A stretch of DNA of 64,000 bases from Escherichia coli (GCF_013122565.1 NZ_CP053258.1), one strand, 5' to 3'; positions 205 through 37,779 are shown, numbered from the stretch's first letter. The notes: generated by a model from the sequence alone, not told the origin. A program made the numbers and translations.

Positions 205-2838
205 TTATTTGGGAAGCGCAGTTCCCCATTCACGCCACTCTTTCGGTTCACTTTCCTGCAACAGGAAGTGCTTGCCTTCCTGGGCTTTCGGTGCCAGTGG
301 CGTACCCGGAGGCGTGGCGAAGGCGATGCCGCCACGGATAAACTGGTTAAAGGTGCCGGTTTTCACTACGCCGCCCGTCAAACCAAAGTCCAGACTGTAA
401 CCCGATGCCAACCAGAAGATGGAATTGTTACGCACCAGGTGTTGATAGCGTTTACTGATGCGCATCGCAATCATCACGCGATCAGACAATGTCCCCAGCG
501 TCATTCCGGTAACCGTACCTACTTCCAGACCACGGAACAGCACAGGCGTACCAATACCTAACGAACCGGCTTCAGGCGCTTCAACAATAATGCTTAAGCC
601 ATCCAGGTAACGCGAATCAGTAATGGTGGCCTCTTGCAACTCAAAGTCGCGGCGAGGATTACCCCGACCTGGTTCGACGTTGATATACGGCTGGAGGATG
701 GTATCAAGATGCTCAACGCCCGCGGCTGAAATTTGCGGTGTGACCACCGAGAAGCGCGTACCGCCGCGGGCGAAGGTCTGGACATACTCCGGATAGAGCA
801 CCGCTTTTGCCTGCACTTCATTGCGCGCGGTAATCAGATCCAGCGTCTGGATTTGCCCGATATCAATACCGAGATAGCGAATTGGCATCCCGACCGCCAG
901 TTTTCCGGCATCGAAAGCGTGGAGCGTAATCTGCCCGCCAACCGCACGGGCTGCTGTTTCGGAAGCATACAGAATACGTTTGTCGCCTTTACGCTGACTG
1001 GCGCTGGCACCGCTGAGGTTATCGAAGCTAATGGCTCCCTTTAATGCTCTGGAGAGCGGGGATGCCTGTACGGTCAGGCCGCTGCCATTCAGCTGAACTT
1101 TCGCCCCGCCTTCTGCCCAGAACACGCTATTGCTGGTCAGAAGGTTGCGATACTCCGGCTTAATATGCAGATCGATATCAAACGCGTTAGCTCGCGGACG
1201 CACGGTAATCACTTCACCAACTTCAAATTTACGGTACAGCACTACCGATCCTGCCTGCACATCCGGCAGCGTCTCTGCACTCAAACTCACGGTTGTGGTG
1301 GGTAAATCGCTAAGGCTGTTCTCCAGCGCTTTTTCCAGATTTGCATACAGTGGATAGCTGGCTTTCATCTCGCCTTTATCGCCCGGCAGAATACGTATCC
1401 CGCCGTTAATCCATTCTGAGGCGCTGGCACCGAGAAACTCAACGCCATCCAGCCCCACCTTCACGTCGACACGGCTGTTGACGACAAATTTGCTATCGCC
1501 TTTTACCAGTTCGCGATGCTGAGGCTCGATGGCGACGGTAAAGGTAACGCCTTTGCTGGTGAGTTTACGATCAATAACCTGGCCTACCTGCACGCCGTGA
1601 AGAATGAGCGGCTGACCAGCATCAATACCGTAACTTTCCGGCGCGGTCAGGGTCAGCGTCAGAACATCAGGTTCATGCAGCAGTGCTTTTTCGCCTGGCA
1701 CAACAACGAACTCTTTGCGTGGCTCGCCATCGCCGGGCACCAACTCAAAGGTTTTGCCAGTCAGCAGGGCGCTGAGATTGGCATCGCTAAGGGATAATTT
1801 CGGGTTGCGTAATTCGATGCGGGTATTTTCCCGTAGCAGCGTAACGACGCTGGGATCAACGGTCATTTCTCCGGTGACTTTACCACCAGGATTTAAATCC
1901 AGTTTAGTCAGCTGTCCGACTTCCAGCCCCTGATACATTAACGGCGTCGAGTCGGCGGTTAATCCGGCCCCACTCGGCAGTTCCAGTTTTATTATTACGC
2001 CACGCTGGCTGTGGGCCAGATCTTCATACAGACCAAAGGTATCTTCCGCCTCGGCAGGTTTCGACTCTTCAGGTGAATCGAAGGCAATCGCACCGTTAAC
2101 CAGTGCCGCCAGACTTTCCAGTTTCACCTTCGCGCCACTGATACTGACGTTGGCATCAACGCCAGAAACATTCCAGAAACGGCTACCTTTTTTCACCAGG
2201 TCGGTAAAACGCCGCTCGATCAGGACATCAATCACCACGCCTTGTTTATTGGGATTGATGGCATAGTCGTAGACTTTACCCACCGGGATCTTGCGGAAAT
2301 AGACCAATGAACCGCTGTTCAGCGAACCGAGATCGGGAGCTTGCAGGTGGATCATCAGATCGCCGTTATCCAGCCGATACTTCGGTTGGGTATCGAGTGC
2401 GACAAAGTGATCCTGCTCTTTACCTTTACCTGGCATCATGCCGATATAGTTACCACCGACGAGGGCGTCCAGCCCGGAGACACCTGCCAACGAGGCCTTT
2501 GGCGTCACCAGCCAGAACTGTGTCTCTTCGCGCAGCGCATCTTTCATATCGGATTTGATGCTGACCTTGACTTCAATCTTACGAAGATCGTCGCTGAGGC
2601 TGATATCCTGCACTGTTCCGACTTCAACGCCCTGATAACGAACAGGCGTACGGCCTGGAACAATACCATCCGCCGACATAAAGTCGATGGTGACGGTATT
2701 ACCCCGGTCCTGATAACTGTCCCAAATCAGCCAACCGGCAATCATTAGCGCGATGAACGGCAGCAGCCAGAAAGGTGAGATACGGCGTTTATTTTTAATC
2801 TGCGCTTCAGTCGTCGAAGCGGGCGTTTCCTGACTCAT
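205..2838 (-). CDS. letB: Lipophilic envelope-spanning tunnel protein LetB (YebT), multi-MCE-domain protein
   Basis: ORF track 205..2880 (891 aa). Start trimmed to ATG 2838 ([27 protein letters not shown]...), giving 877 aa. N-terminal TM helix followed by tandem MCE repeats. Sequence recognised as YebT/LetB. Confidence 0.95.
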
Positions 2839-30527: not shown

Positions 30528-30600
30528 TAATATTATGTTAACAACATGTTTATCACTTGGGGTTGCGATGACGACGAACACGCATTTTAGAGGTGAAGAA

Positions 30601-32286
30601 TTGAAGAAGGTTTGGCTTAACCGTTATCCCGCGGACGTTCCGACGGAGATCAACCCTGACCGTTATCAATCTCTGGTAGATATGTTTGAGCAGTCGGTCG
30701 CGCGCTACGCCGATCAGCCTGCGTTTGTGAATATGGGGGAGGTGATGACCTTCCGCAAGCTGGAAGAACGCAGTCGCGCGTTTGCCGCTTATTTGCAACA
30801 AGGGTTGGGGCTGAAGAAAGGCGATCGCGTTGCGTTGATGATGCCTAACTTATTGCAATATCCGGTGGCGCTGTTTGGCATTTTGCGTGCCGGGATGATC
30901 GTCGTAAACGTTAACCCGTTATATACCCCGCGAGAGCTTGAGCATCAGCTTAACGATAGCGGCGCATCGGCGATTGTTATCGTGTCTAACTTTGCTCACA
31001 CACTGGAAAAAGTGGTTGATAAAACCGCCGTTCAGCACGTAATTCTGACCCGTATGGGCGATCAGCTATCTACGGCAAAAGGCACGGTAGTCAATTTCGT
31101 TGTTAAATACATCAAGCGTCTGGTGCCGAAATACCATCTGCCAGATGCCATTTCATTTCGTAGCGCCCTGCATAACGGCTACCGGATGCAGTACGTCAAA
31201 CCCGAACTGGTGCCGGAAGATTTAGCCTTCCTGCAATACACCGGCGGCACCACAGGTGTGGCTAAAGGCGCGATGCTGACTCACCGCAATATGCTGGCGA
31301 ACCTGGAACAGGTCAACGCCACCTATGGGCCGTTGCTGCATCCAGGTAAAGAACTGGTAGTAACGGCGCTGCCGCTGTATCACATTTTTGCCCTGACCAT
31401 TAACTGCCTGCTGTTTATCGAACTGGGTGGGCAGAACCTGCTTATCACTAACCCGCGTGATATTCCAGGGTTGGTAAAAGAGTTAGCGAAATATCCGTTT
31501 ACCGCTATCACTGGCGTTAACACCTTGTTCAATGCGTTGCTGAACAATAAAGAGTTCCAGCAGCTGGATTTCTCCAGTCTGCATCTTTCCGCAGGCGGAG
31601 GGATGCCTGTTCAGCAAGTGGTGGCAGAACGTTGGGTGAAACTGACCGGACAGTATCTGCTGGAAGGCTATGGCCTGACCGAGTGTGCGCCGCTGGTCAG
31701 CGTTAACCCGTATGATATTGATTATCATAGTGGCAGCATCGGTTTGCCGGTGCCGTCGACGGAAGCCAAACTGGTGGATGATGATGATAATGAAGTACCA
31801 CCGGGTCAACCGGGTGAGCTTTGTGTCAAAGGACCGCAGGTGATGCTGGGTTACTGGCAGCGTCCGGATGCTACAGATGAGATCATCAAAAATGGCTGGT
31901 TACACACCGGCGACATCGCGGTAATGGATGAAGAAGGATTCCTGCGCATTGTCGATCGTAAAAAAGATATGATTCTGGTTTCCGGTTTTAACGTCTATCC
32001 TAACGAGATTGAAGATGTCGTCATGCAGCATCCTGGCGTACAAGAAGTCGCGGCTGTTGGCGTACCTTCCGGCTCCAGTGGTGAAGCGGTAAAAATCTTT
32101 GTAGTGAAAAAAGATCCATCGCTTACCGAAGAGTCACTGGTGACTTTTTGCCGCCGTCAGCTCACGGGCTACAAAGTACCGAAGCTGGTGGAGTTTCGTG
32201 ATGAGTTACCGAAATCTAACGTCGGAAAAATTTTGCGACGAGAATTACGTGACGAAGCGCGCGGCAAAGTGGACAATAAAGCCTGA
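30601..32286 (+). CDS. fadD: Long-chain fatty acyl-CoA synthetase FadD
   Basis: ORF track 30535..32286. Start set to the TTG at 30601 ([24 protein letters not shown]...), giving 561 aa as in K-12. AMP-binding motif [12 protein letters not shown]. Confidence 0.93.
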
Positions 32287-32355: not shown

Positions 32356-33483
32356 TTGAATTACCAAATGATTACCACGGACGATGCGCTGGCTTCTTTG
32401 TGTGAAGCCGTCCGTGCCTTTCCGGCGATAGCCCTGGATACTGAATTTGTTCGTACGCGCACTTATTACCCGCAGCTGGGGTTGATTCAACTTTTCGATG
32501 GCGAGCATCTGGCGCTAATTGATCCTCTCGGGATCACCGACTGGTCACCGCTGAAAGCGATCCTGCGCGATCCGTCCATCACAAAATTTCTCCATGCAGG
32601 CAGTGAAGATCTGGAAGTGTTCCTCAATGTCTTTGGCGAATTACCACAACCCTTGATTGACACGCAAATCCTTGCTGCCTTCTGCGGACGCCCGATGTCA
32701 TGGGGTTTCGCTTCCATGGTGGAAGAGTATTCCGGCGTTACGCTGGACAAGAGTGAATCGCGCACCGACTGGCTGGCCAGACCGCTGACCGAACGTCAGT
32801 GTGAATACGCAGCGGCGGATGTCTGGTATCTGTTACCGATCACCGCCAAGCTTATGGTAGAAACGGAGGCCTCCGGCTGGCTACCTGCGGCGCTGGATGA
32901 ATGCCGCCTGATGCAAATGCGTCGTCAGGAAGTCGTTGCGCCGGAAGATGCCTGGCGTGATATCACCAATGCCTGGCAGTTACGCACACGCCAACTGGCC
33001 TGTCTGCAACTGTTAGCCGACTGGCGACTGCGCAAGGCGCGAGAGCGCGATCTGGCGGTGAACTTTGTCGTGCGTGAAGAGCATTTGTGGTCGGTAGCGC
33101 GTTATATGCCGGGAAGTTTAGGCGAACTGGACAGCCTGGGTTTATCCGGTAGCGAAATCCGCTTTCACGGTAAAACGCTGCTGGCGCTGGTGGAAAAAGC
33201 GCAGACATTGCCGGAAGAGGCCTTACCGCAGCCGATGCTTAACCTGATGGACATGCCGGGTTATCGTAAAGCGTTTAAAGCGATTAAGTCGCTGATTACT
33301 GACGTGAGCGAAACGCACAAGATCAGCGCCGAATTGCTGGCATCGCGTCGGCAAATCAACCAACTGCTGAACTGGCACTGGAAACTGAAACCGCAGCACA
33401 ATTTGCCGGAGCTGATTTCCGGCTGGCGTGGTGAGCTGATGGCGGAAGCATTACACAATTTATTGCAGGAATATCCGCAGTAA
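32356..33483 (+). CDS. rnd: Ribonuclease D
   Basis: ORF track, 375 aa, starting at TTG 32356 (NYQMITTDDALASLCEAVRAFPAIALDTEF...). DEDD exonuclease and HRDC domains. The UUG start is a known feature of rnd. Confidence 0.95.
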   Translation: MNYQMITTDDALASLCEAVRAFPAIALDTEFVRTRTYYPQLGLIQLFDGEHLALIDPLGITDWSPLKAILRDPSITKFLHAGSEDLEVFLNVFGELPQPLIDTQILAAFCGRPMSWGFASMVEEYSGVTLDKSESRTDWLARPLTERQCEYAAADVWYLLPITAKLMVETEASGWLPAALDECRLMQMRRQEVVAPEDAWRDITNAWQLRTRQLACLQLLADWRLRKARERDLAVNFVVREEHLWSVARYMPGSLGELDSLGLSGSEIRFHGKTLLALVEKAQTLPEEALPQPMLNLMDMPGYRKAFKAIKSLITDVSETHKISAELLASRRQINQLLNWHWKLKPQHNLPELISGWRGELMAEALHNLLQEYPQ

Positions 33484-33536: not shown

Positions 33537-33950
33537 CTACAAATCCAACACCAGGCGTTTACCCTTCGCACGCGAACAACAGATCAACATACTTTGCTGG
33601 CTGGCACGCTCTTCATCGCTAAAATACTGATCCCGATGGTCAGCTTCACCTTCCAGTATTGCCGTTTCGCAGGTTCCGCATACCCCTTCACGACATAAAC
33701 ATTCCACTTTCGCGGCTTTATTATTTTCAATAACCTGCAAAATAGTCATCTCTTCCGGCACCACAAACTCTTTTCCGGAACGGGCAAGCACCAGGGTAAA
33801 TGCATCGCCGGTTTTGTCTTCGATAGCAAATTGCTCAAAGTGCAGCGTATCGGCGGCGATGTCCAGACGCGCAGCTTCACTTCTTACCGCTTCAATTAGC
33901 GCCTCGGGGCCACAGGTATAAACGTGTGTGCCAGGTTCGATATCCGCCAT
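33537..33950 (-). pseudogene. yeaX: Truncated yeaX: only the C-terminal part of the reductase, including the plant-type 2Fe-2S ferredoxin domain
   Basis: ORF track 33537..34016 (159 aa). From ADIEPGTHVYTCGPEALIEAV... to ...CREGVCGTCETAILEG...LICCSRAKGKRLVLDL it matches the C-terminal part of YeaX (321 aa in K-12 by my recollection). The N-terminal FMN/NAD part is absent, and codons upstream of 33950 fall in a palindrome and AT-rich DNA. Confidence 0.75.
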
Positions 33951-33992
33951 TGACATCCTCCACGTCCTGAAGGACGAGGAGGATGTCAATGG
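33947..33992. repeat. 46-nt near-perfect palindrome at the yeaX truncation point
   Basis: ccattgacatcctccacgtcct-ga-aggacgaggaggatgtcaatgg: 22-nt arms, 21 of 22 complementary, counted base by base. Each arm carries GGAGG-N6-ATG on its own strand. Confidence 0.9.
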
Positions 33993-34139
33993 CAGGGTAT
34001 GAGTTGTATATTGCATTTAACGAATTAATTATTTTTGTGTTATATAAATTAAACAATTAAGAATTCGGAAAGCCATAAAACACGAAACGGAAACAATAAA
34101 AGGTGAAATGACGCAGGTTATTAACTGCAAAGAACGAAT

Positions 34140-34165
34140 AAAAAAACCGCGTCAGTGACGCGGTT
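34140..34165 (-). terminator. dmlA rho-independent terminator
   Basis: Minus strand: aaccgcgtc-act-gacgcggtt followed by U7, 20 nt after the dmlA stop. Confidence 0.8.
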
Positions 34166-34184
34166 CAAATAAACTGGTTTGACC

Positions 34185-35270
34185 TTAACGCAAAATAATT
34201 TTGCAAATCGCGTCGGCAACCTGTGGCGTGGTGGCACTGCCTTTCATATCCGGTGTTTTCGGCCCGTGAGCAATCACTTCTTCAATCGCTGCCAGAATAC
34301 CGTTATGCGCTTGCTGGAAACGCTCATCGCCATTGCCGAGAAAATCGAGCATCATTGCACCGGCCCAAATTGTGGCGATAGGGTTAGCAATATTTTTCCC
34401 GTAGATATCCGGCGCGGAACCGTGGACAGGCTCGAAGAGCGACGGGAAAGTGCGTTCCGGATTCAGGTTGGCGGATGGGGCAATGCCAATGGTGCCGGTG
34501 CAGGCCGGGCCAAGATCGGAAAGGATATCGCCAAACAAATTGGACGCCACTACCACATCGAAGCGTTCCGGCTGCATCACAAAACGCGCGCAGAGAATAT
34601 CAATATGCTGCTTGTCCCACCGGATCTCCGGATAATTCTCGGCCATTGCTTCCACTCGCTCATCCCAGTACGGCATGCTGATGGCTAAACCGTTCGATTT
34701 AGTGGCAGAAGTTAGTGTCTTACGTGGGCGGCTTTGCGCAAGTTCGAAGGCATAACGCAAAATGCGATCGACACCACGACGCGTAAATACCGATTCCTGA
34801 ATGACGACTTCATGCTCTGTACCTTCATTCACTCTACCGCCGAGCGAGGAATATTCGCCTTCGGTGTTTTCCCTGACCACGTAAAAATCGATGTCGCCAG
34901 GCTGTTTTCCCGCCAGCGGGCAGGGAACGCCAGGAAAGAGACGAACCGGGCGCAGATTGACGTACTGGTCGAATTCACGACGAAATTTCAGCAGCGAACC
35001 CCACAACGAAATATGGTCCGGAACGGTATCCGGCCAGCCGACGGCACCAAAATAGATGGCGTCGAAACGGCTAAGTTGCTCATGCCAGTCGTCCGGCATC
35101 ATTTTACCGTGATGGCTGTAATACTCGCAGCTCGCCCACTCCATTTGCTCAAAACTCAAGGCGAAGCCCCAGCGCTCAGCGGCAGCCTGTAACACGCGAA
35201 TCCCTTCAGGAAGGACTTCTTTGCCAATCCCGTCTCCCGGGATCGCAGCAATACGCATCGTTTTCATCAT
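34185..35270 (-). CDS. dmlA: D-malate/3-isopropylmalate dehydrogenase (decarboxylating) DmlA (YeaU)
   Basis: ORF track, 361 aa (MMKTMRIAAIPGDGIGKEVLPEGIRVLQAAAERWGF...). Isocitrate/isopropylmalate dehydrogenase family. Recognised. Confidence 0.94.
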   Translation of the reverse strand: MMKTMRIAAIPGDGIGKEVLPEGIRVLQAAAERWGFALSFEQMEWASCEYYSHHGKMMPDDWHEQLSRFDAIYFGAVGWPDTVPDHISLWGSLLKFRREFDQYVNLRPVRLFPGVPCPLAGKQPGDIDFYVVRENTEGEYSSLGGRVNEGTEHEVVIQESVFTRRGVDRILRYAFELAQSRPRKTLTSATKSNGLAISMPYWDERVEAMAENYPEIRWDKQHIDILCARFVMQPERFDVVVASNLFGDILSDLGPACTGTIGIAPSANLNPERTFPSLFEPVHGSAPDIYGKNIANPIATIWAGAMMLDFLGNGDERFQQAHNGILAAIEEVIAHGPKTPDMKGSATTPQVADAICKIILR

Positions 35271-37596: not shown

Positions 37597-37779
37597 ATGG
37601 GCAAAGCAACGTATACCGTGACCGTCACCAATAACAGCAATGGCGTTTCTGTCGATTATGAAACAGAGACGCCGATGACTTTGCTGGTGCCAGAAGTGGC
37701 GGCTGAAGTGATAAAAGATCTGGTGAATACCGTGCGTTCTTATGACACGGAAAACGAACATGATGTTTGTGGTTGGTAA
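37597..37779 (+). CDS. yoaG: DUF1869 small protein YoaG
   Basis: ORF track, 60 aa (MGKATYTVTVTNNSNGVSVDYETETPMTLLVPEVAAEVIKDLV...). Starts 3 nt after the yeaR stop. Confidence 0.9.
   Translation: MGKATYTVTVTNNSNGVSVDYETETPMTLLVPEVAAEVIKDLVNTVRSYDTENEHDVCGW

Follow-up and report, generated by a model that had tools for sequence, protein, structure and literature searches.

A palindrome at a yeaVWX deletion joint in Escherichia coli, a probable scar of IS609-type right ends

The right end of IS608 is defined by a cleavage site, TCAA, located 10 nt 3′ of the foot of a hairpin, and the element uses TTAC as its target (PMC3201880). IS608 TnpA requires a guide 5′ of the hairpin foot for stable complexes and for cleavage, and cleavage of a TTAT-type target needs a left end to which TnpA is bound (PMC3201880). 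Miniature derivatives of IS200/IS605 elements, the PATEs, have also been described (PMC7290912). The palindrome reported here lies in a 64,000-nt stretch of E. coli DNA (hereafter the window; GCF_013122565.1, NZ_CP053258.1). It shares with the right ends of IS608 and IS609 a subterminal imperfect hairpin and an end at GTCAA (TCAA in IS608) placed 10 nt from the hairpin foot, and with the IS609 right end in particular the terminal GGAGGATGTCAA and a flank that follows a TTAT target. In contrast to an IS609 right end, it is not accompanied by tnpA, tnpB, a left end or the GGAT guide, the place of the guide being taken by an inverted terminus. PATEs and other mini-derivatives, such as the prophage Sp5 hybrid described below, are likewise short, hairpin-bearing, repeated and built from the same IS ends, but they carry a left and a right end in direct order and are mobilisable, whereas the palindrome appears to consist of two right ends, inverted. 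REP/BIME sequences and REPINs with their RAYTs are also short, repeated extragenic hairpins related to IS200/IS605 ends. Their GTAG/CTAC head, their high copy number as an E. coli chromosomal family and REPIN pairing are all missing here, as the palindrome contains no GTAG/CTAC motif and is present in one copy in the window.

The window reads as an E. coli-type segment in which fadD (30535–32286, plus strand), rnd (32356–33483, plus strand), a yeaX remnant (33537–33949, minus strand), the palindrome, dmlA (34185–35270, minus strand) and dmlR follow one another. Comparison with the loci of strains STO_Bone2 (L002), N96 (L049) and 1506 (L001) places the end of yeaX homology at 33949 (..GATATCCGCCA|) and the restart of homology to the dmlA–yeaV spacer at 33990–33992. 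The DNA missing at this joint amounts to 3,429 bp as measured in STO_Bone2 (~3.4 kb), is bounded by ATAA at one end and TTAT at the other, and takes in yeaV with the promoter-proximal stretch of its leader, yeaW and the 5′ half of yeaX. What remains of yeaX is its last 137 codons, which encode a 2Fe-2S ferredoxin domain (Pfam Fer2) and are 100% identical to yeaX of many E. coli. On the other side, alignment to the intact loci identifies a dmlA–yeaV spacer remnant (33990–34184, minus strand) that includes the dmlA terminator (34166–34144), followed by dmlA itself, the gene upstream of the lost yeaVWX cluster, which gene comparison finds intact. A preliminary description of this DNA had located the palindrome exactly where YeaX homology ends and had counted its creation by the rearrangement among its readings, and the comparison agrees on both counts. 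The joint of the window occurs in none of 5,426 complete E. coli genomes. Within the spacer remnant, positions 33994–34055 are ~95% identical to the best of these 5,426 genomes, with ~10 substitutions crowded into 60 nt, next to the yeaX remnant that is 100% identical to many. The K-12-like strain 1506 carries an independent and different rearrangement upstream of yeaV (L001 8480–8500) in which the N-terminus and leader are gone, and its yeaV is annotated as a partial pseudogene; yeaX is frameshifted in STO_Bone2 and several other strains. The yeaVWX cluster thus seems to decay repeatedly.

The palindrome itself, CCATTGACATCCTCCACGTCCT-GA-AGGACGAGGAGGATGTCAATGG, spans 33946–33993, and a repeat finder resolves it into 23-nt arms (33946–33968 and 33971–33993) separated by 2 nt. 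The arms pair at 22 of 23 positions (96%), the lone mismatch being an A opposite an A (33962 and 33977). The sequence is as first described, at 33947–33992, with arms that prove one base longer on each side. As single-stranded DNA, the minus strand folds into a hairpin of −26.3 kcal/mol, compared with −7.7 ± 2.0 kcal/mol for 200 shuffles, none of which is equally good (z = −9.2), and the 22-mer arm has no second copy in the 64-kb window when up to three mismatches are allowed (chance expectation 0.00). The palindrome is exceptional, as had been claimed. Its centre is a 40-nt core, TTGACATCCTCC-ACGTCCTGAAGGACGA-GGAGGATGTCAA (33950–33989), that is missing from the intact loci, where neither arm pre-exists anywhere in 10 kb, even with three mismatches (L001, L002 and L049).

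The source of the core is indicated by L043, in which the 5′ exon of a group II intron is the end of an IS200/IS605-family element with tnpA (Pfam Y1_Tnp, E = 4e-41) and tnpB (HTH_OrfB_IS605 and TNB; the full-length tnpB in L045 also contains OrfB_IS605). RefSeq names this type of element IS609, and it is found in 5,346 of the 5,426 genomes; it moves as single-stranded DNA and counts IS608, IS605 and IS606 among its relatives. Five copies at five different sites (L043, L045–L048) have the right end ...ACAGCCTGAACGTAGCAGGGATCC-ACGTCC-TTCA-GGGCGT-GGAGGATGTCAA|flank, and the same hairpin, in direct orientation, is part of the left end. The last 27 nt of IS609 match the minus strand of the palindrome at 26 positions and the plus strand at 23, and this 27-nt right-end match is the sole one that blastn of IS609 finds in the window. 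On the minus strand the inner stem reads TCGTCC-TTCA-GGACGT, compared with ACGTCC-TTCA-GGGCGT in IS609, and the inner stem-loop (33962–33977) corresponds to the subterminal imperfect palindrome of the IS609 right end, with 10 nt between the hairpin foot and the element end GTCAA. One terminal 12-nt GGAGGATGTCAA (33950–33961, minus strand) abuts yeaX, its GTCAA joining the yeaX flank at 33950|33949, and the other (33978–33989, plus strand) joins the yeaV-leader flank at 33989|33990. The second outer arm, TTGACATCCTCC, is not IS sequence, since IS609 has ..GCAGGGATCC at this place; it is an exact inverted copy of the terminal 12 nt. Because one half is an IS609 right end and the other outer arm is its inverted terminus, the palindrome can be read as two right ends, head to head. 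We assign it to an IS609 right-end scar with high confidence, and with moderate to high confidence we interpret it as two head-to-head right ends that have one hairpin in common and two genuine insertion junctions. The preliminary description had offered an inverted duplication made by the deletion as one reading. The inverted repeat stands, while a duplication of local yeaX or yeaV sequence does not, the core being a foreign IS609 end and its inverted copy. An IS609 left end (CC(A/G)GTGCGC..., hairpin CCCCGTCC-TTCA-GGG(T/C)GGGG), tnpA and tnpB are all missing from the palindrome. Where IS609 has its guide tetranucleotide, GGAT, on the 5′ side of the hairpin foot, the palindrome reads ..CATCCT.. 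on both strands. With the guide lost, the scar should no longer be cleavable by TnpA and is probably immobile.

Both junctions of the scar lie in the register expected of IS609 insertion. The left junctions of IS609 read TTAT|CC(A/G)GTGCGC in four of five copies and TTAC| in the divergent fifth. The window contains an empty IS609 target in yoaG, ACCGTGCGTTCTTAT|GACACGGAAAACG (..TTCTTAT|GACACGG..; 37729–37756, plus strand), which is an exact fusion of both flanks of the IS609 copy in L045, and the two alleles together place insertion 3′ of TTAT, without target duplication, with the element ending in GTCAA. Other E. coli, including L045 and several more, have an IS609 copy exactly at this yoaG site, ~3.7 kb from the scar. 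On the yeaX side of the scar (minus strand), intact GATTAT|TGGCGGATA becomes GTCAA|TGGCGGATA in an exact replacement. On the leader side (plus strand), intact AATTAT|TTGCAGGGT becomes GTCAA|TGGCAGGGT, in register with one T-to-G difference at 33991. The same relation holds in a P1-like plasmid, where TCTCTTAT|GCAACAT of the empty L041 corresponds exactly to GTCAA|GCAACAT of L003, and in pPCP1-type plasmids, where TTAT|GTTAGACATGG of the empty L051 corresponds to GTCAA|ATTAGACATGG of L021 in register with one mismatch. For the palindromes of the Stx phages and the A34 prophage, no palindrome-free homologue was found. All four junctions for which an empty or intact homologue is at hand are thus in the TTAT register. 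As TTAT occupies 0.3–1.2% of positions on the relevant strands of the locus (chance of register ~0.006–0.008 for the yeaX junction and ~0.003–0.012 for the leader junction), four such junctions are far from chance. Moreover, because target cleavage needs a TnpA-bound left end, each junction implies the genuine insertion of a two-ended element. These junctions support, with moderate to high confidence, a scar composed of two IS609-type right ends on opposite strands, each with its own insertion-site flank attached.

The same architecture is found at 35 other loci, with outer arms TTGACATCCTCC and GGAGGATGTCAA, an inner stem of 6–8 bp and a 4-nt loop, TTYA or its complement. The inner stem varies with compensating changes and the outer 12 bp are held fixed, a constancy that is partly imposed by the search pattern. 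A sensitive search recovers near-identical 40-mers in E. coli replicons, namely P1-like plasmids, lambdoid and Stx prophages, small pPCP1-type plasmids and 258 phage records. When one genome per species is scanned for the exact pattern, the structure turns up in Legionella, Oxalobacter (four contigs), Chlorobiaceae, Salinivibrio, Chlamydiales, Rhodospirillaceae, Guyparkeria and Chamaesiphon, and a scan of IMG/VR adds 18 further palindromes. Family members end exactly at GTCAA on both sides in 26 of 35 cases. No target-site duplication and no conserved target lies beside the palindromes of the family, and no protein, be it toxin-antitoxin, recombinase or nuclease, is common to the neighbours of the 35 loci. 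In an Oxalobacter MAG the same right end sits beside the 3′ end of tnpB, and the solo palindromes share the loop variant of that copy, which points to a local origin of the scars. Among IMG/VR hits with one fixed inner hairpin (n = 26), most are true right ends (..GGAATCC-hairpin-GGAGGATGTCAA) and 2–4 are palindromic. On one viral contig, an intact IS copy of the same type lies in inverted orientation with its right end 70 nt away from a palindromic scar (L028 10954–11100), and the contig has a third copy at another place, an arrangement that suggests repeated local insertion.

Nearly precise excision of Tn10 leaves a short palindromic scar in which two inverted IS copies are represented by their outer ends, the interior being lost, a product attributed to snap-back and slippage. 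The IS609 scar would resemble this remnant in being a short palindrome of outer ends from which the intervening DNA has been lost. It would differ in that Tn10 belongs to a DDE, double-strand IS family, and in that the repeats used for slippage would be the IS hairpin itself. We consider it likely that the palindrome is a dead IS609 scar, in which two inverted right ends are fused at the hairpin and the DNA between two TTAT sites is lost, and we propose with moderate confidence that it formed by collapse of the two ends. We infer both this history and the mechanism of collapse; the two-copy intermediate is likewise inferred, and none was seen. IS609-type elements, either full or reduced to mini-elements with left and right ends, would have occupied both TTAT sites in inverted orientation with their right ends outward, the second copy being stable or formed transiently when the first re-inserted into the complementary strand. 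Such precursors are expected to have the right-end joints GGAGGATGTCAA+TGGCGGATATCG in yeaX and GGAGGATGTCAA+T[TG]GCAGGGTA in the yeaV leader, and the left-end joints GCGCGATTAT+CC[AG]GTGCGC and GTAATTAT+CC[AG]GTGCGC. The two inverted copies would pair as a snap-back, and replication would slip from one subterminal hairpin to the other; being near-palindromic, the two hairpins can serve as direct repeats too. By inspection, the subterminal hairpin agrees with its own reverse complement at 16 of 20 positions, so that two inverted right ends also carry a direct quasi-repeat at the base of the snap-back. Slippage would leave the 40-mer and take away the body and left end of each IS copy along with yeaV, yeaW and the 5′ half of yeaX, with the orientation of the loop depending on the slip position, so that either could result. 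Both loop orientations are indeed found at homologous sites (L038 versus L039, and L019 versus L050). The T-to-G difference at 33991 replaces a C/T mismatch beside the stem by a C-G pair, so that the arms reach 23 nt, the outcome expected of quasi-palindrome correction by template switching.

Several points weigh against this two-copy route. [quoted passage not shown] The leader junction requires the one T-to-G change, where the rival considered next reads 2 nt of filler; the A-A arm mismatch and a G-to-A in the inner stem require later mutation or two variant parents; and the window has no IS609 copy outside the scar. None of the 5,426 complete E. coli genomes has an IS609 or mini-element at either TTAT site of the locus, and the yeaX-side joint found no match in one metagenome scan. 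A single IS609 in yeaX could instead have sufficed if the nascent strand folded back at the hairpin, copied the terminal 12 nt together with 2–4 nt of yeaX flank and then, through GC microhomology, was joined again to the yeaV leader, with loss of the IS body and 3.4 kb. The yeaX junction would then be the exact TTAT site, and the extra TG (33990–33991) and the 4-nt extension of the palindrome (GCCA/TGGC) would need no point mutation; extensions of at least 3 nt occur in three of the 35 family members, compared with ~0.5 expected. However, fold-back leaves the in-register TTAT at the leader to chance (~1%), a variable overshoot would not lead one to expect the 26 members that stop exactly at GTCAA, and run-on would copy the same flank onto both sides, which is never seen among the 35. 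We regard this course of events as unlikely. Considerably less probable still is that the 40-nt palindrome is a mobile miniature element, moved in trans by an IS609-type TnpA and inserted between opposite-strand TTAT sites, with the 3.4 kb between staggered cuts lost. Such an element would fit with a unit that has identical, discrete boundaries in many genomes and is present several times per genome in one MAG, and with two junctions in the TTAT register. Yet TnpA works on single strands rather than on duplex ends, and no conserved target lies beside occupied sites. The palindrome also lacks both a left end and the guide tetranucleotide that IS608 TnpA needs (PMC3201880).

None of the three readings first put forward stands as it was worded. 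The absence of both arms from intact loci rules out a native leader hairpin as well as an inverted duplication of local DNA. The first of these, in which a hairpin native to the yeaV leader controls translation and outlived the deletion, had been one of the readings proposed; its SD/anti-SD appearance is all that speaks for it. This reading is refuted by the three compared loci, of which L002 and L049 have intact leaders with no trace of either arm, and by the occurrence of the same 40-mer in phages, plasmids and other phyla, and we give it a negligible probability. A symmetric operator, the last of the readings first put forward, or another selected element, such as a terminator that works in both directions or a switch controlling translation of the YeaX remnant, fares only slightly better and is highly improbable. 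The hairpin is very stable, and family members often lie between convergent genes or just past a stop codon. Against this, the same 40-mer stands beside unrelated genes in unrelated phyla with no common neighbouring protein to bind it, and the gene downstream in the window is a truncated pseudogene. A terminator scan finds no T-run and makes no call at the palindrome, calling only the dmlA terminator (34166–34144), which lies upstream. Promoter-like matches are at background level (2 versus 0.9 expected) and none stands out, and an Rfam scan of the region returns only sub-threshold, microRNA-like hairpin hits. We find no sign of a regulatory role for the scar in these scans. Two further candidates were discarded. 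A sequencing adapter or engineered scar is at odds with the natural covariation of the inner stems and with the true IS ends that share the sequence. Protein-coding arms (DILHALKD...) are excluded by a variation in element length of 1–2 nt, which does not keep the frame; the apparent DILHALKD motif arises because the loop and the IS terminus are conserved.

The preliminary description had drawn attention to GGAGG-N6-ATG on both strands, and the motif is present as claimed. The ATG of the minus strand (33950–33948) is in frame with the YeaX C-terminus, also as claimed, and opens a 137-aa product with the Fer2 domain. This product is not diagnostic, because strains with a frameshifted full-length yeaX give the same call from a TTG start; a 159-aa fusion ORF was not on record in our look-up. 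The minus-strand ATG is made up of the terminal A of the IS and the TG of a yeaX TTG codon, and the plus-strand ATG of the terminal A and the TG of the flank, where the G is the sole base that differs from intact alleles (T-to-G). The conserved IS terminus GGAGGATGTCAA includes GGAGG, and the terminal A together with flanking TG makes up each ATG; the buried SD and start codon are a by-product. The 23-codon plus-strand ORF of the earlier account, which owes its ATG to the T-to-G difference, finds no support, and we read it and the SD/ATG motifs as accidental.

A group II intron also makes use of the hairpin. Bacterial class C introns are known to insert just after stem-loops (PMC1702495; PMC3522654). 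Plasmid L042 carries the palindrome with an ORF-less group II intron of ~490 nt (RF02001, 96.9 bits; RF01998, 46.8 bits in Rfam) where L003 has the bare palindrome; on the intron strand it reads ...GGAGGATGT|GTGCG...GCCGAT|CAA, and L003 is the exact empty site. Related intron copies elsewhere share this 5′ exon. In L042, L043 and L044 the insertion lies 3 nt inside an IS609 right end or a palindromic scar (GGATGT|CAA). The full-length intron of L043 (3028–4870, plus strand) encodes a reverse transcriptase-maturase with RVT_1 and GIIM and no endonuclease domain; those of L042 (~1697–2180, minus strand) and L044 (from 3028, plus strand) are ORF-less or truncated. By setting the IS cleavage site 1.8 kb from the hairpin, the L043 intron should cripple its host element. 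The window palindrome keeps the intron exon sequence on both strands, at 33986|33987 (plus) and 33953|33952 (minus), identical to the exons of L042 and L043, and thus appears to provide a site of class C type, with a stem-loop 5′ exon ending in ..GGAGGATGT and the 3′ exon CAA. No group II intron is present in the 64-kb window. The introns of L042, L043 and L044 resemble those at known class C sites, terminators and attC, in following a stem-loop directly. They differ in that the stem-loop is an IS end rather than a terminator or attC. A native intron exon as origin of the hairpin was set aside as the primary explanation once the IS609 end had been identified; an intron site accounts for a user of the hairpin and not for its origin.

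IS-mediated deletions and IS remnants are ordinary. This scar stands apart because it recurs across phyla, lies at mosaic joints and is used by an intron. A limited literature search found no description of head-to-head right-end palindromes, and a full-text search for the arm sequences returned only unrelated primers. For the window, the scar makes a history readable in which an IS609-mediated event would have destroyed the carnitine-to-trimethylamine genes yeaW and yeaX together with the transporter gene yeaV. As a tentative proposal, to which we attach a low probability, head-to-head palindromes may be a regular and previously undescribed product of IS608/IS609-type elements across phyla. 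They might arise in one concerted step of excision from one strand, re-insertion into the complementary strand and bypass of the snap-back by replication. The DNA between two targets would be deleted or replaced each time, and a portable 40-nt hairpin would stay behind as a mosaic recombination joint and a landing pad for class-C-like introns. If such a regular single-strand transposon reaction exists, the palindrome would be a new, recognisable signature of deletion and mosaicism driven by IS200/IS605 elements, and would give annotators a simple marker for a scar that at present goes unannotated.

The same 40-nt scar marks module boundaries in Stx phages, P1-like plasmids and the plague plasmid pPCP1. 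It lies directly after cI in Stx phages, after higBA in pPCP1, and between the tail-fibre and lysis modules of P1-like plasmids, where it forms an edge common to ~470 of them. Stx-type phages L019 and L020 share the cI-side junction with L050, but the inner loop is in the opposite orientation and the far-side DNA is different: L019/L020 have an intact restriction-modification module of BsuBI type there, and L050 an unrelated insert of 162 nt with a truncated endonuclease gene; here the scar seems to have been reused as a recombination joint. In Yersinia pestis pPCP1 the flanking sequences match at the spacing expected for the 40-nt scar. In the pPCP1-type plasmid L021 the 40-nt scar follows higA, and ~100 nt away, just 3′ of pla, lies another related palindrome that is shorter, GACATCCTCCCC-GCCA-GGGGAGGATG (~1925–1955). 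The Stx prophage Sp5 of Sakai contains an unannotated hybrid of the IS609 left and right ends, ~50 nt long with one common hairpin, at TTAT|CCGGTGCGCTGTAAAACCCCGTCCTTCAGGGCGTGGAGGATGTCAA (L004 3005–3056, minus strand), and Shiga-toxin-producing strains such as O157:H7 and O111 have 5–11 Sp5-like matches per genome.
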